From assembly GCA_964291235.2 (NCBI GenBank), contig OZ219815.1, positions 352,001-416,000 of the forward strand: 64,000 nucleotides of DNA, read 5' to 3'. Origin of the DNA: Vicinamibacteria bacterium (GTDB lineage: Bacteria > Acidobacteriota > Vicinamibacteria > Marinacidobacterales > Marinacidobacteraceae). Made by a program: the position numbers and the translations under genes. Below the pieces are notes generated by a model. That model was not told the origin of the DNA, did not search any database, and saw only the letters and a program-made list of their open reading frames with translations. Of this stretch, positions 2,432-54,563 are shown one piece after another (the first letter of the stretch is position 1; each line of letters opens with the position of its first letter).

Positions 2432-2433
2432 TC

Positions 2434-3414: not shown

Positions 3415-3421
3415 ACAGCCG

Positions 3422-4354: not shown

Positions 4355-4362
4355 CCCCCCCG

Positions 4363-5174: not shown

Positions 5175-5368
5175 CGGCAGCCCGATTCCGGGGCAGGCTG
5201 CGCCGGCGTTGGGGGCCGGGAACGACGCCCCCGCCGGACCCCGGAATCGAGATTACAGAGTGACGTGACACGCGGTACACCTGCGCGGGAAACAACACCC
5301 GCGCCGGACACCCGAGTTCGTGGGTACACCGCGACGCCGACGATCCGGAGCCGGACCGGCAGCTCCCG

Positions 5369-5629
5369 CTACCGCGCGGGCGGCGCTTCGTCGTTCGGGT
5401 CGGGGCCGGACGCCACCACCCGGACGGCGCGGGCGCGGTAACCCCCCGGGATCTTGAGCAGCTCGAACTCCACTACCTGACCCTCGATCAGGAAGCCCGG
5501 TTGCGAGTCCAACAGCGCGTTGCTTGGCACGTGCACGTCCGGTCCTTCGAAGCGCTGGATGAAACCCTCACCCCGGCGGCGGTCGTACCACTTCACGACT
5601 CCTTCGGCCATGGCCGTGGATTCTGACAC
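5369..5629 (-). CDS. Cold-shock domain protein (divergent)
   Basis: GVVKWYD..RGEGFI...DVHV, EGQVVEF; alternative ATG at 5611. Confidence 0.8.
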   Translation of the reverse strand: MSESTAMAEGVVKWYDRRRGEGFIQRFEGPDVHVPSNALLDSQPGFLIEGQVVEFELLKIPGGYRARAVRVVASGPDPNDEAPPAR

Positions 5630-5641
5630 GGCCGAGAGCGG

Positions 5642-6631
5642 TCAGGAGGACGATTCGACGGGCTTGCCCCAATCCGTGTGCGGAGCCCGATTCCGGCCAA
5701 ACCACTGCCAGAGGAGCCTTCCGTAGCTGGTGGGACGGGCTCCGATCTCGTCGAAGAAGGGCCGCAACAGGAAGTGCAGCGCCCGGAGGTTGTAAAACGG
5801 CACCCGCGGGAAGTAGTGGTGTTCGAGGTGGTAGCCGGACCACAGGAAGGCCATGTCCCAGAACCGTGACGGGCGCAGCAGGCTCCCCCAGCGCGCCGGA
5901 TCTTCCGGCACGATGTCGTAGTGCTGGCCCAACCGGTTCACGGTGAAGGCGACGGGAAAGACCAGAAACACCGGAACGAGGTAGGCCTTCAACGCCGCGA
6001 AGAAGCCGCCGGCCGCGATCAGTCCCGCGATGATCGCCAGATGCCCCGCGACCGTGAGCGTCCGCTCCCGGGAGATGGCGCGCCGGATGTCCTCCGGGTA
6101 GCCGGCCGACTCCCGCCGGGCGGCGCGGAAATAGATCGGGATGAGCGCCGGGGTCAGGTAGAGGGCCTTGAACCAGCGGGCGTTTCGCTTTGGGGACAAC
6201 CAGTGCCGTTTCGGATCCGCCTCGGCGTCCCCGAGCTGGGCGTGATGATCGAGATGCCAGCGGGTGAACTGGGTTGCCGAGATTCCGCTCGGAAACGCGT
6301 ACAGGTGGCGGAGCACCCGGTGGCCGGCATGTCCGCCGGCCTCGAAGACGAGTTCGTGCACGACTTCGTGCAGCATCACCGTGAAGTTGAAGACCGTAAA
6401 CCCGACGACCAGAGCGGCCGGGATCCAGATCCACCAATCGGGAGCGAGCCAGGCGACCGCGCCCGCGCCGAAGAGCAGCAGGAACTGCCACCCCAGCACC
6501 AGGAAATGCAGGAGCGGCCGCCGCCGGTGCAGCCGGCGCAACTCCTCCGCGGGCACCGCCGCGGCCAGCCGGGCGCGAAGCTCACCCGTCCGATCGGCCC
6601 AGTACGAACGTCTTCTGGCTACGGGTTCCAT
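5642..6631 (-). CDS. Membrane fatty acid desaturase family protein
   Basis: His boxes HEVVH, HLDHH, HLEHH; ATG at 6631 has SD GGAGG. Confidence 0.88.
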   Translation of the reverse strand: MEPVARRRSYWADRTGELRARLAAAVPAEELRRLHRRRPLLHFLVLGWQFLLLFGAGAVAWLAPDWWIWIPAALVVGFTVFNFTVMLHEVVHELVFEAGGHAGHRVLRHLYAFPSGISATQFTRWHLDHHAQLGDAEADPKRHWLSPKRNARWFKALYLTPALIPIYFRAARRESAGYPEDIRRAISRERTLTVAGHLAIIAGLIAAGGFFAALKAYLVPVFLVFPVAFTVNRLGQHYDIVPEDPARWGSLLRPSRFWDMAFLWSGYHLEHHYFPRVPFYNLRALHFLLRPFFDEIGARPTSYGRLLWQWFGRNRAPHTDWGKPVESSS

Positions 6632-6726
6632 GCCCTCCGGGCATGGTACTTCCGGGGCCGCCGCCCCGGCGTCCGCGGTGGGGCGCACTATGATCGTTTT
6701 CGGCCAGCCAACCCGGGAGGAACCTC

Positions 6727-8526: not shown

Positions 8527-8572
8527 GCCAGCCGGCTCGCAACCAGCCAATCGCTCCCCAGGAGGAATCGAC

Positions 8573-9511
8573 ATGTCCAGGAAAACCCTCGCCCTTGCCG
8601 TCATCGGAGCCATCCTCGGCGCGCTCTTGACGGCGGGTCCCCTCAGCGCCCAGACGAACCCGCTCCGGGGCGAAGCGAAGATCAAGAACTACCTGCCGCA
8701 CATGAGCTGGACGGAGGTGGAGGATCTCCTCACCCGCACCGACATGGTGCTCATGCCGGTGGGTTCCCTCGAGCAGCACGGGCCGCACCTCCCGATCGGC
8801 ACCGACTTCCTGAACGGTATGGAGCGCGCCAAGCTCGTGGCCCAGCGCACCGACGTGCTGGTGGCCCCGATCCTCTTCGTGGGCAACGCGCCCTATCACC
8901 TGGGCTTTCCGGGAACGGTCAGCCTGCCGGCCGAAACGATCCAGCAGGTCTATTTCGAGGCCGCGCAGAGCCTGATGCGGCACGGCTTCCGGCGGTTCCT
9001 GATCCTGAACTCGCACGGGGGCAATCGCGTCATCTCTCAGTACATCGCCGACCGCATCAACCACGAGACGGAGGGGATCGCCGTCGAACTCGGGGCGGCG
9101 TCAGGACCGTTTCGCGAGGAGACCCCTTCGGAGTCCCCTTCCGAGGAGACCGTTTTCGATCGACACGGAGGCGTGGGCGAGACGTCCAGCTCGCTCTACC
9201 TCATCCCCGATCTCGTGGATCTGGCAAGGGCGCGGACCGCGACCCTCACCATGCCGGAGCACCTCGAACGGATGGTTCCCGAGGTGGTCGCGGGCGATCC
9301 CACCGCGCTGAGGGTGTTTCTTGCCGAGAACCTGAAGGCCGAGGAGACCGGCAAGGGCACGTCCGCCCGGGAAGTCACCGATACCGGTGTCTGGAGCGTG
9401 CGCGATCTGGAGGCATCGAGCGTGGAGCGCGGGCGGCGGGAGGCCGAAGCGTTCATCGATGCCGCGGTCGCGTTCATCGAACGCTGGAAGGAACTGAGGC
9501 CGCGGGAGTGA
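8573..9511 (+). CDS. Creatininase/creatinine amidohydrolase family protein with signal peptide
   Basis: PVGSLEQHGPHLPIGTD, NSHGGN, HGGVGETS motifs; hydrophobic N-terminus. Confidence 0.9.
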   Translation: MSRKTLALAVIGAILGALLTAGPLSAQTNPLRGEAKIKNYLPHMSWTEVEDLLTRTDMVLMPVGSLEQHGPHLPIGTDFLNGMERAKLVAQRTDVLVAPILFVGNAPYHLGFPGTVSLPAETIQQVYFEAAQSLMRHGFRRFLILNSHGGNRVISQYIADRINHETEGIAVELGAASGPFREETPSESPSEETVFDRHGGVGETSSSLYLIPDLVDLARARTATLTMPEHLERMVPEVVAGDPTALRVFLAENLKAEETGKGTSAREVTDTGVWSVRDLEASSVERGRREAEAFIDAAVAFIERWKELRPRE

Positions 9512-9571
9512 TCGCTTCCGAGGCGTGAGCCCACAGGCTGCTAGCTTTCCCACCCTCCGAAGGACGACCCC

Positions 9572-10993
9572 ATGACCCCCATCCCCACCCACGGCCTGCT
9601 CCTGGCCGTCCCGCTGGCTGGCGCCGCGTGCTCCGGTGCCGAGGCGCCCGTCGCGCAGCCGGCCGAGCGCCTGCTGATCGACGGGGGCACGGTCGTGGTC
9701 ATGGACGAGACCGGGACGATCCTGGAAGGCGGCGCGGTCCTGATCGAGGGAGACCGGATCGTGGGTCTATTCGACCGGGCGGCGCCCCGGCCGGCCGGAA
9801 TCCCCACGCTCGATGCGACCGGCCAACTGGTCATTCCCGGCCTCATCAACACCCACGGGCACGCCGCCATGTCGCTGCTCCGGGGGCTCGCCGACGACCT
9901 GCCGCTGATGGACTGGCTGGAGCAGAACATCTTCCCGGCCGAAGCTGCACTGGTCGCCCCCGATTTCGTCTATTGGGGGACGCTCCTCTCCTCCATCGAG
10001 ATGCTGAAGAGCGGGACCACCACCTTCGCCGACATGTACTACTTCCGGGACGAGGTGGCGCGCGCCACCATCGAGGCGGGGATCCGGGCGGTGGTCGGCC
10101 CGCACGTGATCGGTTTTCCCACCCCCGATTTCGCGACTCCCGAGGCATCGCTCGCCGAGGCGGACGCGTTCTTCGAGAAATACGCGGGCCATCCGCTCCT
10201 CATTCCGGGATCCGCGGCCCACGCCCTCTACACCACCCCGCTGGAACCCACGAAGGCGGCCTTCGACGTTGCCGAGCGCCACGGCGCCCCCTTCCAGATC
10301 CATGCCGTGGAAGCGCGGGACGAAGACGAGCGGATCCAGGCGGCGATCGGCATGCGCACCATCGAGGCCCTTGAATCGATCGGGGCACTGCGGCCGGGCA
10401 CCGTGCTGGCCCACGGGACCTACCTCTCGGACGAGGACATCCAGCGGGTCGCGGCGTCCGGCGCCGGTGTCGCCCATAACCCGGAGAGCAACATGAAGCT
10501 CGGAGCGGACCGGGCGGCGCCCGTCGAGGCGCTCCTCGCCGCCGGGGTTCCGGTGGGACTCGGCACCGACGGGCCGGCGAGCAACAACGATCTCGACATG
10601 TTCGGGGAAATGGACACCGCCGCCAAGCTCCACAAGTTCGCGACCGGCGACCCGACGTCGCTACCCGCCGAAACGGTGTTCCGGATGGCCACCACGGGCG
10701 GCGCCCGGGTGCTCAACCAGCAGAACGAGATCGGGTCGCTCGAAGTCGGCAAGCGCGCCGACATCGTGCTGGTGGAGACCCGGCGCGCCGGGATGACGCC
10801 GCTCTACCGTCCCTACTCCCACCTCGTGTACGTCACCCGGGGAAGCGACGTCCGCACCGTGCTGGTGAACGGGAAAATCGTGGTGCGGGACGGCGAGATC
10901 ACCACGGTGGACGAGGATGCGGTGATGGAGAAGGCCCGGGGCTTCGCCGATCAGGTGCGCGAGGCGGTGGCCGAAGTCAAATCGGCGCGGTAG
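9572..10993 (+). CDS. Amidohydrolase (MTA/SAH deaminase-like), putative lipoprotein
   Basis: PGLINTHGH, HNPESNMKL, GTDGPASNN; N-terminal GAAC lipobox-like. Confidence 0.85.
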   Translation: MTPIPTHGLLLAVPLAGAACSGAEAPVAQPAERLLIDGGTVVVMDETGTILEGGAVLIEGDRIVGLFDRAAPRPAGIPTLDATGQLVIPGLINTHGHAAMSLLRGLADDLPLMDWLEQNIFPAEAALVAPDFVYWGTLLSSIEMLKSGTTTFADMYYFRDEVARATIEAGIRAVVGPHVIGFPTPDFATPEASLAEADAFFEKYAGHPLLIPGSAAHALYTTPLEPTKAAFDVAERHGAPFQIHAVEARDEDERIQAAIGMRTIEALESIGALRPGTVLAHGTYLSDEDIQRVAASGAGVAHNPESNMKLGADRAAPVEALLAAGVPVGLGTDGPASNNDLDMFGEMDTAAKLHKFATGDPTSLPAETVFRMATTGGARVLNQQNEIGSLEVGKRADIVLVETRRAGMTPLYRPYSHLVYVTRGSDVRTVLVNGKIVVRDGEITTVDEDAVMEKARGFADQVREAVAEVKSAR

Positions 10994-40570: not shown

Positions 40571-41386
40571 ATGAACCAGCTCGCCGCCGCCCTGATTGGC
40601 CTGTGTGCCCTCCTTGGTTGCGGGGGCGATGGCGCACCGGCGGCTCCGCTGCCCGTGGCGCCAGCCGCCCCTGCCGCGCCTACCCCGCCACCACCGGCGC
40701 CGCCCCCTCCGGAATCCACCGAGACTTGGCGGGGGCTGACGGTCGCGCCGGAGGAACGCTGTGCGCCGTATGACTCCGACGACTACCGCTACCCGCAATC
40801 CGTCGAGAACAGCGTCGTGCGCGAACTGGGAGGCATCTTCAGTCCCTACACCTGCGAGAGCTTCGACTCGACGCGCGAAACCGACATCGAGCACATCGTG
40901 GCCCGATCCGAAGCCCACGATTCGGGCCTTTGCGGGGCCGACTCCGAGACGCGGACCCGCTTCGCGCGGGATCTGCTCAACCTCACGCTGGCGTCACCGA
41001 CCTTGAACCGCTCACAAAAGAGTGACCGTGACGCGGCGGAATGGCTGCCGGATCAGAACCGCTGCTGGTTCGCCCAAAGGATCGTGGAGGTTCGTCTGCG
41101 ATACCGCTTGACCATCGATCAGGCCGAAGCCGATGCGCTCGACGGGATTCTCGCCGAATGCCGGTCCACTGAAGTTTCCTGCGACGTCCTTGAGCCGCCT
41201 GCAGTGACCGCACCCCCGCCAATCCAGGCCTTTCCCAATTGCAACGCCATGCGCCAGGCGGGTTGGACCCGAGGGGTACACCGCCTCGGTGGGACCTACC
41301 AGGATGCGTGGGACGAGGCGGAACGACAGACCTACGCGCTGAACACGGCCCGGGACGGCGACGGGGACGGCCACGCCTGCGAATGA
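40571..41386 (+). CDS. Lipoprotein with HNH-like (DUF1524-type) nuclease domain and C-terminal excalibur Ca-binding domain
   Basis: LLGC lipobox, Pro tether, DIEHIV..EAHDSG, NL......NRSQKSD.D..EWLP; FPNC..M...DGDGDGHACE. Confidence 0.8.
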   Translation: MNQLAAALIGLCALLGCGGDGAPAAPLPVAPAAPAAPTPPPPAPPPPESTETWRGLTVAPEERCAPYDSDDYRYPQSVENSVVRELGGIFSPYTCESFDSTRETDIEHIVARSEAHDSGLCGADSETRTRFARDLLNLTLASPTLNRSQKSDRDAAEWLPDQNRCWFAQRIVEVRLRYRLTIDQAEADALDGILAECRSTEVSCDVLEPPAVTAPPPIQAFPNCNAMRQAGWTRGVHRLGGTYQDAWDEAERQTYALNTARDGDGDGHACE

Positions 41387-42900: not shown

Positions 42901-43115
42901 GGAGCGCCAGCCTCCGGCTGGCATCGCCGAGCAAAGCGAGGCGAAACTCCCAGACTCAATCAGCCCCGACAACGCCAACGCAAACGATGACGGCGCGGCG
43001 CGGTACGAGCGCGGGAGTGGCGCCGCGTCACCCTGCTGGGCTGCGGCGCCATCCTGGCAGGCGGACGATGAGAATTTCGCTCCGCGGAGCGATTCCGGCC
43101 AGAGGCCGGCGCTCC
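42901..43115. repeat. REPIN (REP doublet), same family as 38602-39072
   Basis: GGAGCGCCAGCCTCCGGCTGGC at 42901 and inverted CCGGCCAGAGGCCGGCGCTCC at 43095. Confidence 0.8.
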
Positions 43116-43263
43116 TAGCTGGCGCTCCGGCGAGGGGGAGGGAGTAGAACATGTCATCTAAGTCAATGACCCCAGGATGATTCGGTGGGGTGGGAATCGA
43201 ACACTGACCCACGTTTTGCCCCGCGGTCAGTTGAGATTTCGCCGCTGATCCTCGGGCGAGTCC

Positions 43264-44583
43264 TCAGTTCGGCTCGCAGGCTACCCCGTCCCTGTCAGGA
43301 TCAAGAGCATTCCGGTGCTCTGGCCGGATCACGTCTACCGTGACTCCTGCGGCAAAGACCGACCGCACCTGATCGCATCGGAAGTAGCCTAGGAAGCTGC
43401 CTTCAGCCTTCATCTGTTCTACCCACTCGTCAAGGCTCATGTCCTCACCGCGCTCCACGGTCCGATTGGGGCGATCCTCGTTCTCTACGCTCGCATTCGC
43501 TCGCGTAGGGAGCAGCGGCTCCTCATTTAGCTGCTTCGATGTGATCTCGGCAGCCGCGCTTGTGAGATTCAGGAACCGTTCCGCCGAAGTCGGGTGGCTC
43601 CGGGCATAGAGGATGCTGCCGGCCGACTCAATCGCCATTCGTCGCCAGAAGTTTGCGGCCTGCTCTGTGTCGATACCAGCATTCGCCAGCAGGTACAGCC
43701 CCACGTAATCGGCCTCCCGCTCGAAGTCCTGGGAGAAAGCTCTGGCCCCCATTACCGCCCCGAGTTCAGTGGCCGTGCCGTAGGTATTCACTCCGGAGGC
43801 ACCCGCCAGCGCGTCCACGACCGCTCCCAGCAGCAGACCCCCGACCACGTTCCTCTGCATCTTCCCGATGTGGTCTTCGATCGCGTGGGCTAGCTCGTGG
43901 GCAATCACCGTCTGCAACTCCAGATCCGTCTCCGTGAATCGGAGCATGCCCGTTGAGACGTTGAGGGTTTCTCCGTCCGTGAACGCGCCGATTCCCGTGT
44001 CCTCGATCAGAACGACGGAGTAGGAGCAGACGAGAACCGCCTCCATCGGGAATGGAGCAGTCTCGCCTTCCCGCTCCACATGAACGATCACCTGATGATC
44101 GAGGAGTGCCCGATCCCACAGGCGGTCCAGATCTCGCCTGGCTCTCCCAACATCGCGCTCCGTCTGAACGGGAGGGATTTCCTGGTCATCGAGGCTAACC
44201 AGGACATCCCCGACCATGAGACCTGCTCTGTCGGCGGAACTTCCCGGAGTAATGTGAGTAAGGGTGACGCGATCTGATAGGCCGAACACTTCCGCCGCGA
44301 CGGACCGAGCTTCTCTGGGAAAGTCCCACTGAGTGGCAAAGAAGACGCCTATCTGGGGCTTGACCCGGCTACCGCAGAGCGCCGTGTTGGCTTTGAGGAT
44401 CGGATACGCAGCCCCTTGGAGGCGCGTGTGCCGAGTGCTGCTGGTCTCCAAAGCAACGCGCAGCTGCTCGCGCTGCTCGATGGCAATGGCGGCCCGATCG
44501 GCGGCGGTCTGAACGGTACTGGTTCCAGCGCAACCGGCCACGGTGGCCCAGATCAAGGCCGATGCAGCAATTCTGGGTTTCAT
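43264..44583 (-). CDS. M48 metallopeptidase lipoprotein with PDZ and excalibur-like C-terminus
   Basis: VAGC lipobox, PGSSADRAGL..GD PDZ, HELAH, FSQDFEREAD, SHP; ends LDPDRDGVACE. Confidence 0.85.
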   Translation of the reverse strand: MKPRIAASALIWATVAGCAGTSTVQTAADRAAIAIEQREQLRVALETSSTRHTRLQGAAYPILKANTALCGSRVKPQIGVFFATQWDFPREARSVAAEVFGLSDRVTLTHITPGSSADRAGLMVGDVLVSLDDQEIPPVQTERDVGRARRDLDRLWDRALLDHQVIVHVEREGETAPFPMEAVLVCSYSVVLIEDTGIGAFTDGETLNVSTGMLRFTETDLELQTVIAHELAHAIEDHIGKMQRNVVGGLLLGAVVDALAGASGVNTYGTATELGAVMGARAFSQDFEREADYVGLYLLANAGIDTEQAANFWRRMAIESAGSILYARSHPTSAERFLNLTSAAAEITSKQLNEEPLLPTRANASVENEDRPNRTVERGEDMSLDEWVEQMKAEGSFLGYFRCDQVRSVFAAGVTVDVIRPEHRNALDPDRDGVACEPN

Positions 44584-44863
44584 ATAGATGTGTTCCTTCC
44601 GGAGTTCTCAAGCGCAGTCGTTCTGATCACTACCCCATCCGGGTTCTGTTGACGATTCACGATGGGGATACCCAAGGCCAGGACAAGTAGGTCGCTGGCG
44701 AGTCTCGCAACTCTCCTTTCTTTGGGCAGCGTACCCGAGATTGGCTGCTTGAACCGTCCCTTTCCCAAGATCACACACGCGCCCTCTGGGTGTCACATCG
44801 CCGCCGAACCGGCGGCTCCACTCCGGTGACTTCCCGCCCCCGTGTCCAGGCTCCAACACCGGT

Positions 44864-46147
44864 CTAGTGCCGGTGCCGGTCTCGATGCGCCTCGTGGAGC
44901 AGCCGGTTCGCTTCAATCGCTTCGGACGCCGTTGTACCGCCCGGCAGGCCCGCGGTCGCGCTGCCGATGGCGCGCCAGGTGCCGCAGTCCTCGTCGTTGC
45001 TGAACCCCACATCGCTCGCCGCGATCTCCACCAACTGCCGCCCGCCACCAGACACGAAATCGTTGGCGATGCGGTCATCAGACGTTCCGCCGAATCCGCT
45101 CAGTCGCTCCCAATAGCAACCGTCCCCCGCATCCACTTCATAGACCCCAGGGTCCACCTGTCGGCCGACCAGCCAGATCCCGGGCGGGATCGTTCCCGCA
45201 TCAGGCGGCGACACCGGGCTTTGGTCCCACGTGCCGCAGTCCTCATTCGTACTGAACGCCACGTCAGACGGATCAATGTCCACGATCACTTGAGCGGAGT
45301 CGAACGAGATGAAATCGTTGCTAATGCGGTCATCCGACGTTCCGCCAAGTCCCGATAGTCGCTCCCAATAGCATCCATCTGGCGGGTTTGTGAAGTAGCG
45401 ACCGGACTCCACCTGTCCGACTAGCCAGGTCCCCGGCGGGATCGTTCCCGAAGCAGGCGGCGACACCGGGCTTTGGTCCCACGTGCCGCAGTCCTCATTC
45501 GTACTGAACGCCACGTCAGACGGATCGATGTCCACGATCACCTGAGCGGAGTCGAACGAGATGAAATCGTTGGCAATGCGGTCGTCCGACGTTCCGCCAA
45601 GCCCCGAAAGGCGCTCCCAATAGCATCCATCTCGCGGGTTTGTGAAGTAACGACCAGGCTCGATGTCCGCGCCGACCAGCCAGGTTCCGGCCCCGAACGA
45701 AGTCCGCGACGTGGCCGGTGGTGGTGGCGGCGGCGCTGCCGTTATGCCCGCGACGTGGTCGGACCATGCGCTCGTGATCCGCCCGTCGCCGGTCCCGGAC
45801 GCGGCCCGCACCCGCAGATAGGCGCTCGTGCTGGCGGCCAGGTCCTCGCGGCGGTAGGACAGCTCCCCCTCCGCCCTGGCGATCACCTCGTCCGCATCCG
45901 TGAACTCCTCATTCGTGCTGAACTGCGCGTCGTAGCCGTTTGCCCCCTCGACCGCGTGCCAGGTCCACTCGATGAAGGCCGCGCCGCGCGCGGAGACGTG
46001 AAGGCCGGTCGGGACGCCGGGCGGGTCGGGCGTCGCTGGCGCTGGGGCGGGTGCCGGTGATGCTGGCGTCGTCGTGGGTGAGCTGTCGCCCCCACAACCA
46101 ACGGAGAAGGCCCACAGGCAGGTGGACGCGATCGCGATGCGGTACAT
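44864..46147 (-). CDS. FN3 lipoprotein with three ~84-aa GxWLVG..GCYWER repeats
   Basis: SVGC lipobox, Pro tether, FN3 (PTGL..WTW..V.GA.GY..YLRVRA..SAWS), repeats GCYWERLSG.GGTSDDRI.NDF. Confidence 0.8.
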   Translation of the reverse strand: MYRIAIASTCLWAFSVGCGGDSSPTTTPASPAPAPAPATPDPPGVPTGLHVSARGAAFIEWTWHAVEGANGYDAQFSTNEEFTDADEVIARAEGELSYRREDLAASTSAYLRVRAASGTGDGRITSAWSDHVAGITAAPPPPPPATSRTSFGAGTWLVGADIEPGRYFTNPRDGCYWERLSGLGGTSDDRIANDFISFDSAQVIVDIDPSDVAFSTNEDCGTWDQSPVSPPASGTIPPGTWLVGQVESGRYFTNPPDGCYWERLSGLGGTSDDRISNDFISFDSAQVIVDIDPSDVAFSTNEDCGTWDQSPVSPPDAGTIPPGIWLVGRQVDPGVYEVDAGDGCYWERLSGFGGTSDDRIANDFVSGGGRQLVEIAASDVGFSNDEDCGTWRAIGSATAGLPGGTTASEAIEANRLLHEAHRDRHRH

Positions 46148-46317
46148 CGCCAGAGCGTACCGCCCGACGCTTCGAGTTCGGGGGTGGGAAAAACCCCCGG
46201 CCGCTTCGGGCGGGGTGCACGCCACGGAGCGTGCGGCGAGCCGTGACTTCACTACGGGCGGCGGACGCTCCGATCCCTCTGGCCGGGCTGCGCCCTGGAC
46301 CACGAACGGGAAGACGG

Positions 46318-47058
46318 TCAGCAGGGAAACGGCAGGGAGTGGGGGCGGAGAGTCGGTAGCGATCCGCCCCCCAATCCCCCCAATATCTGGGGTAGATCTG
46401 GGGGTACGGGAAGAACCGTTGGCACTCTTGGCGATTCGAGACAGTTTTGTGCTTGCCATCGCGCAACGCGCTGGCGCACCGCCCGCCGCCTCCGCGCGTA
46501 AACCCGGCACTCCGGGCAGCGCTTCGCCTTCCCCGGCGGCAACATCCGATCACACGGTTCCTCGCGGCGCGTCACCACGTCCATCCGCATCCCCGGACAC
46601 CGTTTCGGGCGCGCCCGTCCGCGGCCCGGCGTCCCCATGTCTGCTTCCTGCAGCACCTTCCGCACGTCGCGCACGTCCAACAAGAACCCGGCAGCGATCC
46701 GGTGGGCGGACCACCCCCGCGAGCGGGCCAGCACGATGTCCCGGTCCAGGCCCAGCAGGAGCTTCGCCGGCGTCCACCGGAGCCCTCGGCGTCGCAGGGC
46801 ATCCTGTACCGCGGGCGATGTGTGCCGGCTGATGGTCGTATGGGCGCATCCCAGGCGCCGGGCCGCGTCCCGAATACTCGTCGCCCGCGACAGCGCCGCG
46901 TTGATCCGCGCCACCGAGAACTGGCGCCGGACCCTCCGGGACGGCACCTTGCGGCCGGCCGCCATGGCTCGCGCCCGTAGCTGATCCACCCGCGCGCGCG
47001 TCTGCAACCGGCGCAGCGCTGCCCTGATTGCCGCGAGCTCGCGGGTCACGTTCACCAT
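46318..47058 (-). CDS. Arg-rich HTH protein with Cys cluster, phage-like
   Basis: SIRDAARRLGCAHTTISR HTH, second GWSAHRIA HTH-like, C..C..CPEC. Confidence 0.55.
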   Translation of the reverse strand: MVNVTRELAAIRAALRRLQTRARVDQLRARAMAAGRKVPSRRVRRQFSVARINAALSRATSIRDAARRLGCAHTTISRHTSPAVQDALRRRGLRWTPAKLLLGLDRDIVLARSRGWSAHRIAAGFLLDVRDVRKVLQEADMGTPGRGRARPKRCPGMRMDVVTRREEPCDRMLPPGKAKRCPECRVYARRRRAVRQRVARWQAQNCLESPRVPTVLPVPPDLPQILGGLGGGSLPTLRPHSLPFPC

Positions 47059-47234
47059 GCGGAAGGCCTATTCGCTCGACCGCTTGGCTGGTACCAACGT
47101 GCCGCTGCTCGCGACGAGCTGGCGGAACGCAGGGGAGCTGAGGCAGGGCGTCATATAATTGATGTCCTCGGAAGTCATTGACTGTGTTGAGTTTATACGC
47201 TCCGTTTGCCAAATGTAACACGATCGGAACGCGG

Positions 47235-48431
47235 ATGAACAAGGTGGCCAGAGCCCTCGCAGCCCCGTTGCTCGCCGCCGCCTGCGGCACCGGCACCGAC
47301 GGCAAGCCCGTCACGCCGCCCACCACGCCGGAGCCGGTCCCGACCGGGCCTCCGGTTGTCCGGGCGGTCGCGGAGCTGTGGTCGCAGCCGGACAACGACG
47401 GCGGCTACTCCGAGGGCGACCGGATCCGGGTGGTGTTGGAGTTCGATCCGCTGACCACCACCGTGAAGGGCTCGCCCCGGCTCGCCATCGAGATGGGCGA
47501 CCACGTCCGCCTCGCCGACTTCTCCCCCTGGGTCGAGGACGACTGGCCCCCGGAGCGCCCGTCCTTCCTGCAACGCTTCGAGTACCGGGTCGGCTCTCTC
47601 GATGAGGACCAGGACGGCATCAGCATCCCGGCCGACGCGCTCGACTTCTCCGACGGCGCCATTCGGGGCCGGGACGGCGGCGAGATCGAGGTCGCAATCC
47701 GCGCGGTCGATCCGCAGGGGCGGGCAGGCAATCTCGTTCGCCCCGGCGAACCCCTGGACACCCATCGGGTGATCGCTTCGCCGCAGCCGAGGGTCTGCAC
47801 CGACGAGCGGCAGCGCGCTCTGAACTACGGCAACGCAATCCTTCCCCGCGAGTGGGACGGAACCCCCTTCCGGTTTGATCTGTTCGACCACTTCCCGGAA
47901 GCCGCGGGCGCCGACTACCCGAGGAGGCAACTGAGAGTGGTGCAGGAACTCGCGGACCGGATCGAGGACCAGGTCGGATACCCGATCATCGAGGCCGGGA
48001 GCCTGATTCCAGTGCCGGCGCAGCTGCCGGCAGGCTGGAACGTCCCCCCGAGTGGCCGGTCCGGCCCCCGGAACTGCGCCGCGCTGCGCGAGCCGGGCCA
48101 GATCGTCGGGATTGACCTAGCCAGCCTCCCGGACGGGCATGACGGTGGGGGAGCCCTGTCGGCGTCGCCGTGGTGTGCGCTGGTGAGCTACTACGTGGGC
48201 GACGGCCCGCTGGACGGGTACCACCGCTCATGGGCACGCTCGGCCGTCCGCCACGAACTGTTCCACCTGTTCGGCTTCAAGCATCGGGCCGACGAATACC
48301 CGGCGCACATCGGCGTCACCATGTCGCCGGAACTCCTGAACGGCGACCGCGACGGCAAGAACGCGGGGTACATGTACGTCACCTTCGAGGACGTCGACGC
48401 GCTGCGCTGCATCTTCCCCGAGGGCGAATGA
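47235..48431 (+). CDS. Array gene 1: lipoprotein, Ig-like domain + metzincin protease
   Basis: LAAACGTGTDG lipobox; Y.EGD.I.V..F...GSPRL...FEY.V...DEDQDGISI; HELFHLFGFKH; ends LRCIFPEGE. Confidence 0.8.
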   Translation: MNKVARALAAPLLAAACGTGTDGKPVTPPTTPEPVPTGPPVVRAVAELWSQPDNDGGYSEGDRIRVVLEFDPLTTTVKGSPRLAIEMGDHVRLADFSPWVEDDWPPERPSFLQRFEYRVGSLDEDQDGISIPADALDFSDGAIRGRDGGEIEVAIRAVDPQGRAGNLVRPGEPLDTHRVIASPQPRVCTDERQRALNYGNAILPREWDGTPFRFDLFDHFPEAAGADYPRRQLRVVQELADRIEDQVGYPIIEAGSLIPVPAQLPAGWNVPPSGRSGPRNCAALREPGQIVGIDLASLPDGHDGGGALSASPWCALVSYYVGDGPLDGYHRSWARSAVRHELFHLFGFKHRADEYPAHIGVTMSPELLNGDRDGKNAGYMYVTFEDVDALRCIFPEGE

Positions 48432-49456
48432 TGCGCTCCGCCCTGCTCGCGGCCCTGCTGCTCGCCGCCGCCTGCGGCACCGGGACGGACGGCGAGCCCG
48501 TCGCGCCGCCCACCACCCCGGAGCCGCCACCGGAGCCCCCGGGTCGCGTAACCGGCGTGCGGCTGGTGGCGGTCGGTCCGGACTTGATCGAGTGGGCCTG
48601 GGACCCGGTGGAGGGAGCCACCGGCTACGAGGTCGAGGTCTTCCTGGCCTTGACACCCCCCGGCCAGCGAGGCGAGCCCATCATCACCGTCGAGCCAGTG
48701 GTGCGGGCCGAGGGCCTGGAGCCGGGCACGGGATACGAGATTTACGTGCGGGCCGTCCGGGAGACCGCCGGCGGGCGCGCGGTCGGCCCGTGGTCGGCGG
48801 GTTTTGGCATCGTGCAGACGCCGCCAACCGTGCCCCCGGCCTGCACGGACGAGAGGCAGCGGGGGCTGATCCACTCCCCGTGGGTCCGGTGGTGGGACGG
48901 GACGCCGTACCGGGTGGACATCATCAGCAACTTCCCGGAGGTTGCGAGCGCAGCCGACGTGGCCGAGCTTCTCGAACCCATCGCGGCCCTGGACAAGAAG
49001 ATCGAAGAGCAGCTCGGCTACCGGATCGTGGAAATGGGCGAAGTGATCCCGGTTCCAGCAGGGGCGCCGCCGAACTGGAACACGGACGAGCAGGAGTACC
49101 GGCGCACCTGCCCGGTCAAAGCGGAACCGGGCCAGATCGTCGCTTTCTACATGGCCGACGAGAACCACGCGGCGCCGGGCACCTGGGGGCAGGCCAATTC
49201 ATCCTGCGGATCGTTCAGCTACATGCGGCCCATGATGGACAAGTGGCCGTGTTCGGGATGCAACAGAGACGGCCTGACGGTCCACGAGTTGTTTCATGTG
49301 CTCGGCTTCGTGCATGAAACCGACTACGACTTCCTCGAACGCGGTGACGGTGTCCCCATGACCGCGGTGTTGAGCTGGAAGGACGGGCCGGGCGCCTCCA
49401 CGGTCTTGTGGCAGGACATCGACTACCTGCGCTGCATCTTCCCGGAGGGCGGCTGA
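48431..49456 (+). CDS. Array gene 2: lipoprotein, FN3 + metzincin protease
   Basis: Same leader; W.WDPVEGATGY..VRAVRETAGG..GPWS; HELFHVLGFVH; LRCIFPEGG; TGATG overlap. Confidence 0.82.
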   Translation: MRSALLAALLLAAACGTGTDGEPVAPPTTPEPPPEPPGRVTGVRLVAVGPDLIEWAWDPVEGATGYEVEVFLALTPPGQRGEPIITVEPVVRAEGLEPGTGYEIYVRAVRETAGGRAVGPWSAGFGIVQTPPTVPPACTDERQRGLIHSPWVRWWDGTPYRVDIISNFPEVASAADVAELLEPIAALDKKIEEQLGYRIVEMGEVIPVPAGAPPNWNTDEQEYRRTCPVKAEPGQIVAFYMADENHAAPGTWGQANSSCGSFSYMRPMMDKWPCSGCNRDGLTVHELFHVLGFVHETDYDFLERGDGVPMTAVLSWKDGPGASTVLWQDIDYLRCIFPEGG

Positions 49457-50517
49457 TGCGCTCCGCCCGGCTCGCGGCCCTGCTGCTCGCCGCCGCCTGC
49501 GGCACCGGCACCGACGGCAAGCCGGTCACGCCGCCCACCACCCCGGAGCCGGCGCCTGCGCCCGAGGCGCCGCCCGAGCCGCCCGGCCAGCCGACCGGGA
49601 TTCGGGTGGTGGACCAGGGGCAGGACTTCATCGTGTGGGCCTGGGACCCGGTGGACAGCGCCACCGGCTACGAGGCCGGGGTCTTCCCGGCCTTCACGCC
49701 CCCGGGCGAGCGCGGCGAGCCCATCATCACCGTGGAGCCGACCGTCCGGGCGGAGGGCCTGGAGCCGGAAACGGAATACGAGATTTACGTGCGGGCCGTC
49801 CGGGAGACCGCCGGCGAGCGCGCGGTAGGGCCGTGGTCGGCGACCAGCCCCGTCGTGTTTACGCTGGAGCCGCCCGGGGAACCGCGGGTCTGCACGGACG
49901 AGCGGGAACTGGCCCTCGCCTTCCACGGTGGCCCCCTCCCGGTCAGGGAATGGGACGGGACGCCGATCCGCGTGGACATGATCCGCAACTTCCCCGGGTT
50001 GACCGAAACGGACGTTGCCGATCTGCTCGAAGCAGTCGCCCACGTAGCGCGGAAGATCGAAGGCCAACTCGGCTACCGGATCCTGGAAATGGGCGAACTG
50101 ATCCCGGTGCCCGAGGGGATGCAGCCGGGCTGGAACACGGACGCGCCGCGGCACCGGCGCACCTGCCCGCTTCCGCGGAACCCGGGGCAGATCTTGGGCT
50201 TTTGCATGGACGGCACGAACGACAACGCATCATCCGGGGCGGGCGCGCAGGCGAATTCGAGCTGTGGCGACTTCTGCTTCCTGCGGCCGATGTTGGGGGA
50301 TTTGCAGGCAGGGGAGAACCTTGATCGCGTGACTCTGCACGAGATATTCCATCTGCTCGGCTTCGACCATGACCCGACACTTGACCCAGCTACGGTGGAC
50401 CGGGTGGGCGGAGTCATCATGTCCTACACGCTCACCCGCGCAATCGGCCCTGACGCCTCCGTAGTGCAGTGGAACGACATAGACCTGCTGCGCTGCATCT
50501 TCCCCGAGGGCGGCTGA
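49456..50517 (+). CDS. Array gene 3: lipoprotein, FN3 + metzincin protease
   Basis: Same leader and FN3; HEIFHLLGFDH; LRCIFPEGG; TGATG overlap. Confidence 0.82.
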   Translation: MRSARLAALLLAAACGTGTDGKPVTPPTTPEPAPAPEAPPEPPGQPTGIRVVDQGQDFIVWAWDPVDSATGYEAGVFPAFTPPGERGEPIITVEPTVRAEGLEPETEYEIYVRAVRETAGERAVGPWSATSPVVFTLEPPGEPRVCTDERELALAFHGGPLPVREWDGTPIRVDMIRNFPGLTETDVADLLEAVAHVARKIEGQLGYRILEMGELIPVPEGMQPGWNTDAPRHRRTCPLPRNPGQILGFCMDGTNDNASSGAGAQANSSCGDFCFLRPMLGDLQAGENLDRVTLHEIFHLLGFDHDPTLDPATVDRVGGVIMSYTLTRAIGPDASVVQWNDIDLLRCIFPEGG

Positions 50518-51566
50518 TGACGCGCTACCTGCTCGCGGCCCTGCTGCTCGCCGCCGCCTGCGGCACCGGGACGGACGGCAAGCCCGTCGCGCCCCCCACC
50601 ACCCCGGAGCCGGCACCGGCGCCCGCGCCGCCCGGCATCCCGATCGTACGGCTCGCGGAGCGCGGCCCGGGCTTCCTCGTGTGGGAATGGGACCCGGTGG
50701 AGGGTGCCACCGGCTATCAGGTGGTGGTGTCGCTCGACGACACTCCGGCGTCTGAACGGCCGCCTGCCGAATTCACCGAGGACACAACCTTCCGGGTCGG
50801 CGGGATCGAAGCCGGTGTCCCAATGCGGATCTATGTCCGAGCGATCCGGGAAACTGCCGGAGGACAAGCGGAAGGGTCGTGGTCGCAATACGTTGTTTCC
50901 TGGACCAACGACGACCTCCGCCCATTGATGGCCTGCACCGACCAGAGGGAGCGCGCCCTGATTTTCCGGAGTGGCGAGCCCCAGGTGGTCCGTGAGTGGC
51001 AACCCGACCGCCCGATCCGCTTCCGGGTCGATGCCGGACCCATCATTGAGGGCGGGCTGCGGATTGTCCGTCCCAACTTTCTCGAAGAGGAAATCCTGGG
51101 GCCGCTCCGCGACATGGCCCGGCGCCTCGAAGAACGCTTGGGCTACCCGGTGATGGACCCTGACGCGCTGCCGGGTGGGAACGACTACACGGTGACGGTC
51201 CGCTGGCGGGACCACGTCTGGAGCCCCGGGTGGGGAGAACCGCAATGTCCCGGGCACGTCGGGAGCCCGTGGAACGCGCAGGCGAGCCCGCCAGCGACAT
51301 TTATGAACCGCTATTTCTTCGACCCGGAGATCACCTGTGGCGGTTATGTCGGTCACCGCGATTCCGAAACCATCATCCACGAGTTGGGGCACGTCTTCGG
51401 AATGGACCACGACCCGCGTGTGGACGAACACACCCCCCCGGGGAGCCTCGCCATGAGCGACCCCCTGACTCGGATCATCGGCGGGGATAGCGATGCGTTC
51501 CTGCTGGTCGAGGACCTGGACAACATCGGGTGCGTGTTCCCGCACCCGGACTTCCCGAGGCAGTGA
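50517..51566 (+). CDS. Array gene 4: lipoprotein, FN3 + metzincin protease
   Basis: Same leader and FN3; HELGHVFGMDH; IGCVFP; TGATG overlap. Confidence 0.82.
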   Translation: MTRYLLAALLLAAACGTGTDGKPVAPPTTPEPAPAPAPPGIPIVRLAERGPGFLVWEWDPVEGATGYQVVVSLDDTPASERPPAEFTEDTTFRVGGIEAGVPMRIYVRAIRETAGGQAEGSWSQYVVSWTNDDLRPLMACTDQRERALIFRSGEPQVVREWQPDRPIRFRVDAGPIIEGGLRIVRPNFLEEEILGPLRDMARRLEERLGYPVMDPDALPGGNDYTVTVRWRDHVWSPGWGEPQCPGHVGSPWNAQASPPATFMNRYFFDPEITCGGYVGHRDSETIIHELGHVFGMDHDPRVDEHTPPGSLAMSDPLTRIIGGDSDAFLLVEDLDNIGCVFPHPDFPRQ

Positions 51567-52684
51567 TGCGCTCCGCCGTGCTCGCGGCCCTGCTGCTCGC
51601 CGCCGGCTGCGGCACCGGCACCGACGGCAAGCCCGTCGCGCCCCCCACCACGCCGGAGCCGGCCCCGGCGCCCCCTCCGCCGCCCGAGCCTCCGGGCAAG
51701 CCGACCGGCATCCGGGTCGCGGAGGCCGGCCCCGGCTTCATCCTATGGACCTGGGACCCCGTGGAAGGAGCCACCAGCTACTTGGTGTCGGCATTCCCGG
51801 CTGGCGAAGGTTACCGCCCGGCGGATGCAATCGAGGTGGAGGCACCATTCTTCCGGTTCGACGCACTGGAGCTGGGGTGGTACTGGATCTACCTGCGCGC
51901 CGTCCGGGAGACGGCCGGCGGGCGGGCGGTGGGGCCGTGGTCCGACCGGGGAACGGGCGCAACGGTGCGGAATCCGCTCCCTCCCCATCCGCTCTTCCAG
52001 GACCGGCGCTTCGACCGAACGCTCTGGCAAGAACTGGTGTTCGGGTGGTGGAAATGCCACGACGATCCATCGCGCTGCTCGCCCCCGCTCGAAGCGCGGT
52101 GGACCCTCACTCTCGAACAGCAGCCCAGCGTCTACATCCGAACCCACGACGACGAGGGGCGCCGCACCTTCTCCGATTCCGAGATCGAAACCATCCGCCG
52201 GACAGTCCGCGAAGCCGTCGTAGCTCTGACCGGAAGGCCCTTCCGGGGCGAAGTCCTTTGGGGCGACGCTCCCTTTTCCGAAGAGGGCTGGATTGCGGTC
52301 GTGCAATATCCCGTCAACGAGCATTTCTGTGGGTGGGCCAAGCTGGGCGCGACAGCCGGGTTGGTCCGAGTGGTCGAGACCGTTGGTACTGATGACGGAA
52401 GTGGCTGCGGAAGCTTGTCCTTCCGCGCTCTGGTCCGCCACGAGATCGGACACGCGCTCGGCTTTTCCCACGTCACGGAGACCAGCCACCTTATGAATCC
52501 GAGCCTGGAGGTTTCCAATTTCTCGGCCCCCGAGCGATTGCATGCCCGGCTCGCCTACCAGCTCGGGCGGTGGCATCCCTACGTCGACGACCGGAGCAGC
52601 GTCACCACCACCCGGGAAGTGGCGCCAGACGACTTCGAGCCCGCGGACCCCCAAATCGTCGTCTGTCGGCCCGGGGACTTCTAG
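51566..52684 (+). CDS. Array gene 5: lipoprotein, FN3 + matrixin-like protease
   Basis: Same leader and FN3; HEIGHALGFSH..LMNP Met-turn; TGATG overlap. Confidence 0.82.
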   Translation: MRSAVLAALLLAAGCGTGTDGKPVAPPTTPEPAPAPPPPPEPPGKPTGIRVAEAGPGFILWTWDPVEGATSYLVSAFPAGEGYRPADAIEVEAPFFRFDALELGWYWIYLRAVRETAGGRAVGPWSDRGTGATVRNPLPPHPLFQDRRFDRTLWQELVFGWWKCHDDPSRCSPPLEARWTLTLEQQPSVYIRTHDDEGRRTFSDSEIETIRRTVREAVVALTGRPFRGEVLWGDAPFSEEGWIAVVQYPVNEHFCGWAKLGATAGLVRVVETVGTDDGSGCGSLSFRALVRHEIGHALGFSHVTETSHLMNPSLEVSNFSAPERLHARLAYQLGRWHPYVDDRSSVTTTREVAPDDFEPADPQIVVCRPGDF

Positions 52685-52734
52685 CGCCCCACCCAAAAGC
52701 CCTGCTCCGGCCCTGACGGGCCGCAGGGAGCCTC

Positions 52735-53085
52735 CTACGCGGCCCTGACGCCCTCCCGCGCGGCACCCAGGGCCAGCCGCGCGGCCATCCGGGTCGTCGC
52801 GGTGCCGCAGCATGATCTCCTGGGCCTCGGCGGCGGTGCGGTGCGGCGCTCCCACCAGGCCGGCGCCGGCATCCGGGAAGAAGCGCCGAACATCCGGTCC
52901 AGCTCCGCCGGCCCGCACTCCCTGAATTCCACCCGGTAGTCCACCCGGCCGGGGCGGACCAGCGCCGCGTCCAGGCGCTCGGGGTGGTTCGTGGTCATTA
53001 TCAGCAGCCGCCCGTCGTCGGCGCTGGCGAGCCCGTCGATGGCGTTCAGGAAGGCGCTCATGGTGAGGTCCTTCCTGTCCTTCCC
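52735..53085 (-). pseudogene. C-terminal fragment of a BCS1-like AAA+ ATPase
   Basis: TMSAFLNAIDG, IMTTNHPERLDAALVRPGRVD; no Walker A/B; apparent frameshifts near 52887 and 52789. Confidence 0.7.
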
Positions 53086-53160
53086 CCTAAGTTCCCTGTT
53101 ATAGGCCATTTACAGGGCACTCACGGGAACACCCGACAACGCAAGGGAACCCCAGAAACG

Positions 53161-53245
53161 CGGAGGGGGAGGGATTCGAACCCCCGGACCCTTTCGGGTC
53201 AATGGTTTTCAAGACCACCGCCTTAAGCCGCTCGGCCACCCCTCC
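53161..53245 (-). tRNA. tRNA-Ser(TGA)
   Basis: GGAGGGG acceptor stem, anticodon loop CT-TGA-AA, long variable arm, GGTTCGAATC. Confidence 0.95.
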
Positions 53246-53302
53246 GGTGACGGGATGCCGCCGCCGGGCCCCCACCGGGGAACGGGCGGGGCGGCGCCCT
53301 GC

Positions 53303-54229
53303 TTACTCCGGCTTCGGCAGGGCGTCCAGCATCGCCTGGGCCTGGGCGGCGGCGGCACTGTCCGGCTCGACTTCGATCGCCATCTCGAACTGCTCGGCAG
53401 CCGCTGGGAAATCGCCCATGTTCAGATAGACGATGCCGATCTGGACATACGGTTCCGCCCAGTCGGCCCGGCGATCGGCGGCGATCAGGTAGTACTCGAT
53501 CGCCTTGTCCGTTTCGCCGTTCTGGAATGAGATCTGCGCGACGTTGTAGGGGATGACTTCATCCTCGGTGGAGTCCACCGCCTGCTCCCAATAGCCAAGC
53601 GCTCCGTTCATGTCCGAATCGGCCATCTCCATCTCGCCGAGTGACACCAGGGCCGCCGCATTCTGGGGTTCCTGGTCCAGCACCATCTGGTAGGCCGCCC
53701 GGGCTTCGTCCGGCCGGCTCAGTTCGCGGAGCACCGCCGCGCGGTTGAGGTTGATCTGGTACACGGTCGGGTCGGCCGCCAGGAGTTCGTCGTACTTGAC
53801 GAGCGCCTCGTCGAAGCGGCCTGCCTGATGGAGTTCTTGCGCCTCCGCCAGGATGCCGCCTCCAGTCCCCGCGGAACTGCCCATCTGGGCGCGCTCGAGG
53901 ATCAGATCCATGTCGGGGTTCTTCCCCGCCTGCCGCATCGGGGCCTGGTAGTTGTAGGGCATGAACCCGGACGCCTGAGCCGAGAAGTCGTAGGCGCGAG
54001 ACCGGAACCCAAGGATCGCCCAGCGGCCACGACTGTCCGTGGTCGCCTCGAGAACGCGTCCCGAGTCCCCTGCCTGGGCGGTTACGGTCGCACCCTCGAT
54101 CGGGTTTCCGTCCTGATCCTTGACGGTTCCGGCTACACGACCGGTGCCCATCTGAGCGAGCGCCAACTGGGTGACGAACAGCAAACCGGTCGCAACGAGT
54201 ACGGCCTTGAAAGCGGTGTTTTTTCTCAT
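53303..54229 (-). CDS. Carboxypeptidase-regulatory-like domain + TPR protein, secreted
   Basis: Signal peptide, [16 protein letters not shown], several TPRs; SD AAGGAG. Confidence 0.85.
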
Positions 54230-54297
54230 CGGAGATCTCCTTCGCCTCCGGGCTCGGGGCCTCCTTCGGACCGGCGCCCCTTCCGCCCAAATCCGGC

Positions 54298-54371
54298 TGG
54301 CTGGGAAGCAGGGACTCGAACCCCGATTCCACGGTCCAGAGCCGTGTGTCCTGCCATTGGACGACTTCCCA
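54298..54371 (-). tRNA. tRNA-Gln(CTG)
   Basis: TGGGAAG acceptor stem, CT-CTG-GA loop, GGTTCGAGTCC, encoded CCA. Confidence 0.95.
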
Positions 54372-54563
54372 GTGTTGCGGGAACACATGAGGATAGCACT
54401 CCGGGTCGAGCGGTTCGTGACCGGGGCGTTCGATCCCGCAGGCGGCCACAACCCATCGGAAGCGGGCCGGGGCAAGACCCCGATCACGAACCACCGGGCC
54501 AACCGGCGGGCGGCAAGATACGATCCCCTGCCCGGCGGCGAAACTTTGCCTGAAGCGGGCGCT

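Follow-up and report, generated by a model that had tools for sequence, protein, structure and literature searches.

The question raised by this locus is what kind of proteins five consecutive, diverged genes encode, how such a set arose and what it is used for. The genes occupy positions 47235-52684 of a stretch of 64,000 nucleotides (the window) from a Vicinamibacteria bacterium (assembly GCA_964291235.2, contig OZ219815.1, positions 352,001 to 416,000), and each of them ends in a domain with the zinc-binding motif HExxHxxGxxH. The array is probably an operon of lipid-anchored extracellular zinc endopeptidases, which was expanded by duplication and module shuffling and is carried as cargo of a genomic island.

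The five genes and their catalytic domains

The window has a high G+C content (0.63-0.71). The five open reading frames (ORFs) are co-oriented on the + strand and are arranged head to tail; "type A" is used below for the catalytic domain found in the first four products.

Gene 1, 47235-48431, + strand: 398 residues; leader with Cys17 (codon 47283-47285), N-terminal domain of about 150 residues, type A catalytic domain; zinc motif HELFHLFGFKH at 48252-48284, Met363 at 48321-48323
Gene 2, 48431-49456, + strand: 341 residues; leader with Cys15 (48473-48475), fibronectin type III (FN3) domain at residues 38-125, type A catalytic domain; zinc motif HELFHVLGFVH at 49283-49315, Met310
Gene 3, 49456-50517, + strand: 353 residues; leader with Cys15 (49498-49500), FN3 domain at residues 44-132, type A catalytic domain at residues 140-353 (49873-50514); zinc motif HEIFHLLGFDH at 50338-50370, Met322
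Gene 4, 50517-51566, + strand: 349 residues; leader with Cys15 (50559-50561), FN3 domain at residues 43-130, divergent type A domain; zinc motif HELGHVFGMDH at 51378-51410, Met313
Gene 5, 51566-52684, + strand: 372 residues; leader with Cys15 (51608-51610), FN3 domain at residues 44-133, matrixin-like catalytic domain; zinc motif HEIGHALGFSH at 52439-52471, Met310 within SHLMNPS
TGATG stop/start overlaps, + strand: 48429-48433, 49454-49458, 50515-50519 and 51564-51568 (all four junctions)

At each junction, the stop codon of the upstream gene shares its A with the ATG of the next gene. With a one-base overlap at all four junctions, no ORF can lie between the genes. A Shine-Dalgarno-like word, GAGG(G), can be read 5-6 nucleotides before all four internal ATGs, within the C-terminal codons of the preceding gene, and gene 2 has an extra in-frame ATG at 48428, one codon upstream. 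An overlap together with a ribosome-binding word inside the preceding gene is the usual layout of translational coupling. As read from the sequence, the five genes seem to form one translationally coupled operon, which might be transcribed as a single message. Scans of 46900-53300 were uninformative: no promoter-like site was found, and three terminator-like sites were found against 2.8 expected. The hairpin after the gene 5 stop codon (-25 kcal/mol) is indistinguishable from chance (z -0.82 against shuffles).

The ORFs are real genes, not chance frames of high-G+C DNA, since a word-indexed search gave 175 homologues and the models of the gene 3 product have high confidence values (mean pLDDT 90.8 for the full-length AlphaFold model; pLDDT 94.2 and pTM 0.92 for residues 140-353 modelled alone). 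Where named, the homologues are called "hypothetical protein" or "fibronectin type III domain-containing protein" and are assigned to "Acidobacteria bacterium".

An earlier reading of the letters alone (the original prediction) had described five head-to-tail ORFs joined by TGATG and free of interspersed immunity genes, a near-identical leader in each, and the metzincin zinc motif with a downstream Met. All of these descriptions hold: the junctions agree in four of four cases, the one-base overlaps leave no space for further genes, the leader LLAA(A/G)CGTGTDG(K/E)PV(A/T)PPTTPEP is present in all five translations, and in all five HExxHxxGxxH is followed by a Met 8-17 residues downstream. Each of the residues H, E, H, G, H and Met is kept by 90% or more of 108 homologues, and 199 of 210 full-length catalytic domains retain the whole motif. 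The downstream Met is a candidate for the Met-turn residue, which in metzincins lies beneath the zinc site.

Metzincins have the extended motif HExxHxxGxxH (D may replace the last H) and a catalytic fold made up of an upper subdomain of a sheet and helices, the active-site helix, and a lower subdomain that includes a C-terminal helix. Because FN3 chains took up the match lists of the full-length gene 3 model, residues 140-353, which form the catalytic domain, were modelled separately. In a Foldseek search with this model, all 50 listed rows were metzincins. Forty-seven of them were matrix metalloproteinases (MMPs; best E 1.3e-4), the other three were karilysin, profragilysin-3 and ADAM17, and the target TM values were 0.43-0.59 over the listed rows. 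A wide all-against-all structure search, independent of Foldseek, likewise placed only metzincins in its top 35 rows (Z 6.8-9.5 over 121-178 residues). The matches included ADAMTS5 (Z 9.5, 170 residues), ADAM17 (9.3), MMP-9 (9.2), snapalysin (8.6), archaemetzincin (8.5), ulilysin (7.8), fragilysin (7.7), serralysin (7.3) and astacin (7.1). The case for type A as a metzincin domain rests on the fact that every top structure match is a metzincin, together with the conserved motif. With high confidence, the modelled gene 3 domain can be assigned to the metzincin clan, at clan level only; no single family stands out. The expectation that the catalytic domains would fold as metzincins thus agrees with both structure searches on the gene 3 catalytic model.

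A profile hidden Markov model (HMM) of type A found genes 1-4 at E values of 1e-45 to 1e-90 (gene 4: 1.3e-45), and gene 5 was unmatched at E<=1e-3 in a search of the whole genome. None of the 108 type A members reached the Pfam gathering score on the catalytic domain; at E<=0.01, five touched the Astacin model, one Peptidase_M10 and two Reprolysin. The best match to the Astacin model (M12A, PF01400) was that of gene 2, which covers just 23 residues and, at 18.8 bits, is below the cut-off of 22.5, and NCBIfam gave nothing near its cut-offs for the array proteins. The domain has a signature of its own: an N-terminal C-T-D-E-R motif, a C-terminal RCIFPEGG, and two near-invariant Cys residues at the two ends. 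A Cys146-Cys347 bridge (gene 3 numbering) is conceivable. The residue after the third His is variable in genes 1-4 (K, V, D and D). This means that genes 1-4 share a catalytic domain of the metzincin clan that lies outside any catalogued Pfam or NCBIfam family. It resembles the clan in HExxHxxGxxH, in the conserved downstream Met and in a predicted fold for which both structure searches rank clan members exclusively among their top matches, and differs from its known members in reaching no family cut-off, in its terminal motifs and in its fusion to a lipoprotein leader.

The catalytic domain of gene 5 belongs to a different family, which the original prediction overlooked, and appears to be distantly matrixin-like (M10). 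Its HEIGHALGFSH followed by SHLMNP resembles the matrixin signature. The match to Pfam Peptidase_M10 (PF00413) scored 24.2 bits against a cut-off of 24, and only residues 284-316, 33 residues around the zinc site, are aligned. The nearest homologue (P0122; 81% identity) carries PF00413 (25.7 bits) and fn3, and the top Atlas clusters for gene 5 all carry PF00413 (score 0.95). In a PDB profile search with gene 5, astacin (1.7e-4) and stromelysin-3 (2.1e-4) tied. The cysteine-switch propeptide of matrixins has the motif PRCGxPD. In contrast to the bacterial matrixin-like proteins, gene 5 aligns to Pfam over that short segment only, has no PRCGxPD when its translation is read, and is lipoprotein-anchored with an FN3 domain, which directly precedes the catalytic domain. 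In all five products the C-terminus is the end of the catalytic domain, RCIFPEGG or, in gene 5, PGDF.

Predicted anchoring, spacer domains and exchange of modules

Each N-terminus opens with a basic n-region; a hydrophobic core comes next and runs into AAAC or AAGC (...LLLAAAC or ...LLLAAGC), in which the Cys is residue 15-17. The genome has genes for both LspA (E 8.4e-40) and Lgt (E 7.5e-50). The products are predicted from these features to be lipoproteins with a type II signal peptide and a lipobox Cys. A tether of about 25 residues, rich in Pro, Thr and Ala, follows the Cys. In a six-frame translation of the 3.45 Mb genome, exact CGTGTDG occurs six times, in the five array genes and at C1:1112682, and looser versions of the leader are found on many other lipoproteins of the genome. 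The "delivery module" of the original prediction is thereby reduced to a lipoprotein signal, a Pro-rich tether and a spacer domain.

The predicted FN3 domains of genes 2-5 were found by three approaches. A profile of the 108 homologues matched solved FN3 chains at E 1.7e-8; residues ~40-140 of the full-length gene 3 model form a β-sandwich to which FN3 chains align at Z 14.1 (rmsd 1.6 Å over 93 residues); and a family FN3 HMM matched genes 2-5 at E 1e-30 to 1e-43. The N-terminal domain of gene 1 is about 150 residues long (~40-185), and it is common in the family, with one to three tandem copies in homologues. It had been described as Ig-like, which was not confirmed: Pfam gave no match in any of 32 homologues, a PDB profile search gave no solved-structure match, and the Atlas score of 0.80 is within the noise range. 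The label is a reasonable guess.

The modules of the five genes differ in divergence. Nucleotide identity among the genes is 80-94% in the leader, 46-80% in the N-terminal domain and 40-67% in the catalytic domain. Synonymous divergence rises in that order in each of the 10 gene pairs, with 0.07-0.37, 0.38-1.2 and 0.7-1.9, respectively. As the lowest synonymous divergence is in the leader, the leaders have been kept alike at the DNA level, not only at the protein level. Gene conversion is the simplest cause. It should be mentioned that the low leader values rest on 32-33 codons per pair, and that a constraint on the mRNA or on translation initiation could instead explain them.

The 210 full catalytic domains occur in several architectures: 71 are preceded by FN3 and 64 by a gene-1-type domain, 51 follow the leader directly or are fragments, and the remainder have doubled gene-1-type (9), doubled FN3 (5) or mixed (6) N-terminal domains. 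On a tree of 152 catalytic domains, the type of N-terminal domain changes 25 times, compared with 51 times for shuffled labels; this count is approximate, because the tree was made by FastTree and has some long branches. At least 17 of the changes are forced by branches with at least 95% support. For example, the gene 3 catalytic domain is sister to that of a gene-1-type protein (67% identity, 98% support), and that of gene 1 falls among FN3-type proteins. Stems and catalytic domains have thus clearly been re-assorted. The modularity that had been proposed, a constant leader carrying variable N-terminal and catalytic domains, agrees with both the per-module identities and the architectures.

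The distribution of the family is narrow. The gene 3 catalytic domain matches only 150 of 1.84 billion cluster representatives when the threshold is E<=1e-3, and 19 when it is E<=1e-30. Besides the source genome, 15 of 15 genomes from the genus and 20 of 27 from the taxonomic family have the type A domain, with 1-7 matches each. The source genome holds eight, the highest count among the genomes examined. Among 300 phylum members from outside the family, a single genome has a match, which is a fragment containing two stops. The domain is essentially confined to one acidobacterial taxonomic family. A scan for related loci with single proteins gave no confirmed relative, and the whole-genome search was used instead. 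The arrays of related genomes are at other locations, consist of two or three genes and vary in their content, and none of the flanking genes of the window adjoins the arrays in nine related genomes (12 loci). The locus had been regarded as a candidate polymorphic system, and this comparison of array length and order accords with that: neither content nor position is invariant. In some relatives much longer N-terminal stems exist, as the type A domain ends open frames of 1005-1073 residues (in L033 of genome G020, in L034 of genome G014 and at G001:C4:17041-18216).

Two further arrays with a similar leader are present in the source genome, at G000:C1:1109825-1114348 and G000:C2:900799-905213. 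Both mix DUF3472 domains with type A domains. TGATG junctions occur there at two places; the DUF3472 copy at C2:903280-904316 is split over two frames.

It is conceivable, although we hold it to be rather doubtful, that the arrays constitute a cassette system, in which surface enzymes are diversified by recombination at conserved junctions. Each gene would be bounded by a junction of ~150 nucleotides, composed of the RCIFPEGG codons (with the ribosome-binding site), TGATG and the leader. Recombination at these junctions might expand, contract and re-assort cassettes, both inside each of the three arrays of the genome and from one array to another, as well as from island to island in related species, and the cassettes would include non-protease DUF3472 domains besides the protease domains. 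If so, the lipid-anchored hydrolases, based on an uncatalogued metzincin family, would form a set that changes and is particular to each lineage, and the exchange at junctions would be a simple route to surface-enzyme diversity without immunity genes.

Proposed function and relation to known systems

The reading as an operon of lipid-anchored extracellular endopeptidases would explain the locus as follows. Each product would consist of a type II signal peptide, a tether, one spacer domain and a C-terminal metzincin domain. The array would have arisen by tandem duplication and by recombination that re-assorted N-terminal domains with catalytic domains, and the whole set would have been brought in, or kept, as cargo of the ~10 kb tRNA-Ser(UGA) island. 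The five proteins would be made from one message, exported, lipidated at the Cys and held on the membrane by the lipid. The Pro-rich tether and the spacer would then project the protease away from the membrane. The enzymes are presumed to be active on or outside the outer membrane, where the diverged domains might cleave different extracellular proteins. The plainest uses would be peptide scavenging or remodelling of the surroundings.

Several observations weigh against this reading. Not every copy in the family is an enzyme, because 11 of the 210 catalytic domains have lost the zinc site. The structural Z values of 7-9.5 are moderate, and according to the note of the structure tool, Z values below 8 can reflect a common arrangement. 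Most secreted metzincins carry a propeptide or another latency device, and no such device was recognised in the array proteins. Position -3 of the lipobox is Ala, not Leu, Val or Ile, and the lipoprotein call was made by reading the sequence, not by a predictor. Finally, no integrase is present between 43132 and 53160 of the island.

One of the 11 copies is a solitary type A paralogue located ~10.5 kb past the end of the window (G000:C1:426563-427783, - strand). Its zinc site reads QRLFFLLGFDY, from which it is likely a pseudo-protease.

The original prediction favoured a surface protease battery directed at a host or at extracellular matrix. On this reading the targets would be proteins of a eukaryotic host, and FN3 would serve as a matrix-binding module. 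The catalytic fold is indeed closest to MMPs, ADAMs and ADAMTS, FN3 is present, immunity genes are missing from the array, and a variable, island-borne locus is usual for accessory traits. The likeness in fold is, however, at clan level (Z 7-9.5) and is uninformative on the substrate. FN3 is also a common spacer in bacterial extracellular enzymes, and DUF3472 domains ride on the same stems in the two other arrays of the genome. On balance this role seems unlikely, though it is the strongest of the rival readings.

That such a battery can exist is known from the nearest concept that we could identify by analogy, the KLIKK proteases of Tannerella forsythia. These are six clustered secreted proteases of different families with a nearly identical sorting domain; their cluster is absent from a close relative of T. 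forsythia, and they illustrate that clustered proteases with a shared sorting module can serve a host-directed purpose (PMC4404884). Each KLIKK gene is preceded by a small lipoprotein inhibitor gene, a potempin (PMC9890683). The likeness lies in the clustering of protease genes and in differing catalytic domains that share a nearly identical sorting module. The differences are that KLIKK proteases have a C-terminal T9SS sorting domain, several catalytic classes and a profragment each, whereas the array has an N-terminal lipoprotein leader with a tether, metzincins throughout and no profragment seen. In the array, Pfam found no C-terminal sorting domain, and there are no small upstream ORFs.

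A role in envelope housekeeping appears very improbable. Lipoprotein metalloproteases of the M48 family in E. coli are thought to degrade proteins of their own envelope, and the array products might likewise be periplasm-facing peptidases that trim envelope proteins. Lipid anchoring is compatible with the periplasmic face, and an M48 + PDZ lipoprotein lies on the same island. Confinement to one taxonomic family, a copy number of 1-8, the island location and five diverged paralogues in one operon fit poorly with such a role, and the long Pro-rich tethers and FN3 spacers suggest a reach away from the membrane.

Least probable of all is an interbacterial weapon of the polymorphic-toxin type. Polymorphic toxin systems are defined by adjacent immunity genes, treated there as the key distinguishing feature, and by toxin cassettes that recombine onto a trafficking stem (PMC3482391). 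The constant N-terminal module, the variable C-terminal domains that would be the exchangeable toxic proteases, their frequent re-assortment and the differing content between species recall such systems, but no small immunity gene is adjacent (all junctions overlap by one base), no promoter-less or silent C-terminal cassettes exist (every copy has its own start and leader), and Pfam finds no T5, T6, T7, RHS or filamentous stem domain as a dedicated secretion stem, so that membership is close to refuted and the resemblance to polymorphic effector loci proposed originally does not stand.

The original prediction had not recognised a named system in this locus, and no description of the family or of the array was found in the full-text literature searched. 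What was found is a new variant at the family level in a clan that is itself well known, and its arrangement is unusual, not unprecedented. It adds to the metzincin clan a well-modelled, uncatalogued family with its own terminal motifs and lipoprotein anchoring. Read as an endopeptidase operon, the locus would be a clear example of expanded, module-shuffled, island-borne accessory extracellular proteases in an uncultured acidobacterial lineage, and would bear on how such bacteria tune protein degradation or interactions at the surface.

The tRNA-Ser island and its surroundings

The array is located in an insert that adjoins a tRNA gene on its 3' side. The features of this region are as follows.

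Island, 43132-53181, no strand: insert of ~10 kb at the 3' end of tRNA-Ser(UGA), with seven predicted lipoprotein genes, six of them for metallopeptidases
Left att-like direct repeat, 43132-43150, + strand: GAGGGGGAGGGAGTAGAAC; 17 of 19 positions match the tRNA-Ser 3' end at 53163-53181
M48 + PDZ + Excalibur lipoprotein, 43264-44583, - strand: found by Pfam, M48 E 9.7e-19
FN3 lipoprotein with three tandem repeats of ~80 residues, 44864-46147, - strand: leader and FN3 match gene 3, E 2.5e-16
ORF with a weak helix-turn-helix (HTH) match, 46318-47058, - strand: divergent from gene 1 across a 176-bp spacer; HTH_50 and HTH_38 below cut-off
AAA ATPase C-terminal fragment, 52735-53109, - strand: covers only positions 77-130 of the 131 of the Pfam AAA profile; island remnant adjoining the tRNA gene
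tRNA-Ser (anticodon tga), 53160-53245, - strand: found by ARAGORN; the right repeat, 53163-53181, is within its island-facing 3' end

The 19-nucleotide repeat emerged when the empty site of a congener (G014) was aligned to both junctions. The pattern, which was defined after the sequence had been seen, had no match in 100 shuffles of the window, and on both strands of the whole genome it occurs at two places only, the left end and the tRNA gene itself. Searches for att sites with exact 13-mers and with a 26-mer (three mismatches) matched only a second tRNA-Ser.

The backbone to the left of the island comprises a Xer-type recombinase, two unknown genes, seryl-tRNA synthetase (SerRS), a DAO oxidoreductase, a GmrSD-like gene and a β-propeller gene. 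To the right are tRNA-Ser(tga), a TPR/CarboxypepD_reg gene, tRNA-Gln, tRNA-Ser(gct) and a TonB-dependent receptor. Five congeners have this backbone in the same order, at 84-92% amino-acid identity, and tRNA-Ser(tga) is at the equivalent position in G004, G008, G009, G013 and G014. The gap between the propeller gene and the tRNA gene ranges from ~70 bp in G014, which is the empty site, through 0.9 kb (G009), 3.1 kb (G013), 5.6 kb (G008) and 7.6 kb (G004) to 10.3 kb in the source genome. Integrase remnants were found at the same tRNA-Ser site: a fragment in G013, a split integrase beside the tRNA gene in G008 and an integrase-like fragment in G004.

Segment 43132-53181 bears the marks of an element that was integrated at tRNA-Ser, was degraded and is now without integrase, a feature of the locus that escaped the original prediction. 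It shares with tRNA-linked islands the insertion at the tRNA 3' end, the imperfect flanking repeat, the empty site in a congener and the integrase remnants at the same site in three other congeners. It differs from them in having no integrase or mobility gene in this copy and in a cargo that is almost wholly lipoprotein peptidases. The junctions are not artefacts of assembly, since short-read contigs cross both ends of the island without difference; in X1, a public short-read run that may be the source sample itself, record 2 spans 42936-45231 and record 6 spans 51608-53184. Contigs from X5 and X6 gave short, partly diverged pieces of the locus at low depth.

The site in G004 (L036, G004:C1:1567000-1586999, positions 2233-9837) holds an IS110 transposase, the integrase-like fragment and a BCCT transporter. 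The site also encodes a lipoprotein of 345 residues with Big_2 and metzincin domains, which shares 32% identity with the catalytic domain of gene 5, and it lacks the GmrSD-like and propeller genes.

Among the other island genes, a relative of the M48 + PDZ lipoprotein was found in one of five congeners searched, at another genomic position. The repeats of the lipoprotein at 44864-46147 are near-identical, with two Cys residues each (GTWLVG..GRYFTNP.DGCYWERLSG.GGTSDDRI.NDF....), and match no Pfam family at E<=1e-3. The HTH ORF was considered as a regulator of the family and rejected, as it has no paralogues in the genome and no relative in any of 15 congeners; it is a doubtful gene.

Between the propeller gene and the left repeat, a multi-copy repeat of ~230 bp occupies 42901-43128. 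When the two junction segments were compared with the source genome by BLASTN, 211 matches resulted; those listed, 45 in number, were all from 42901-43128, at 72-98% identity and often in tandem clusters. The contig depth over this repeat is ~10-fold above that of the neighbouring regions.

On the other side of the island, the longest ORF of the TPR/CarboxypepD_reg gene (53303-54502, - strand) overruns tRNA-Gln(ctg) at 54298-54371, so its start must lie downstream, near 54199. The three tRNA genes for Ser-tga, Gln-ctg and Ser-gct are clustered within 1.5 kb. An Excalibur domain ends two unrelated secreted proteins of the region, a GmrSD_C nuclease-like protein (40571-41386, + strand) and the M48 + PDZ peptidase (43264-44583, - strand).

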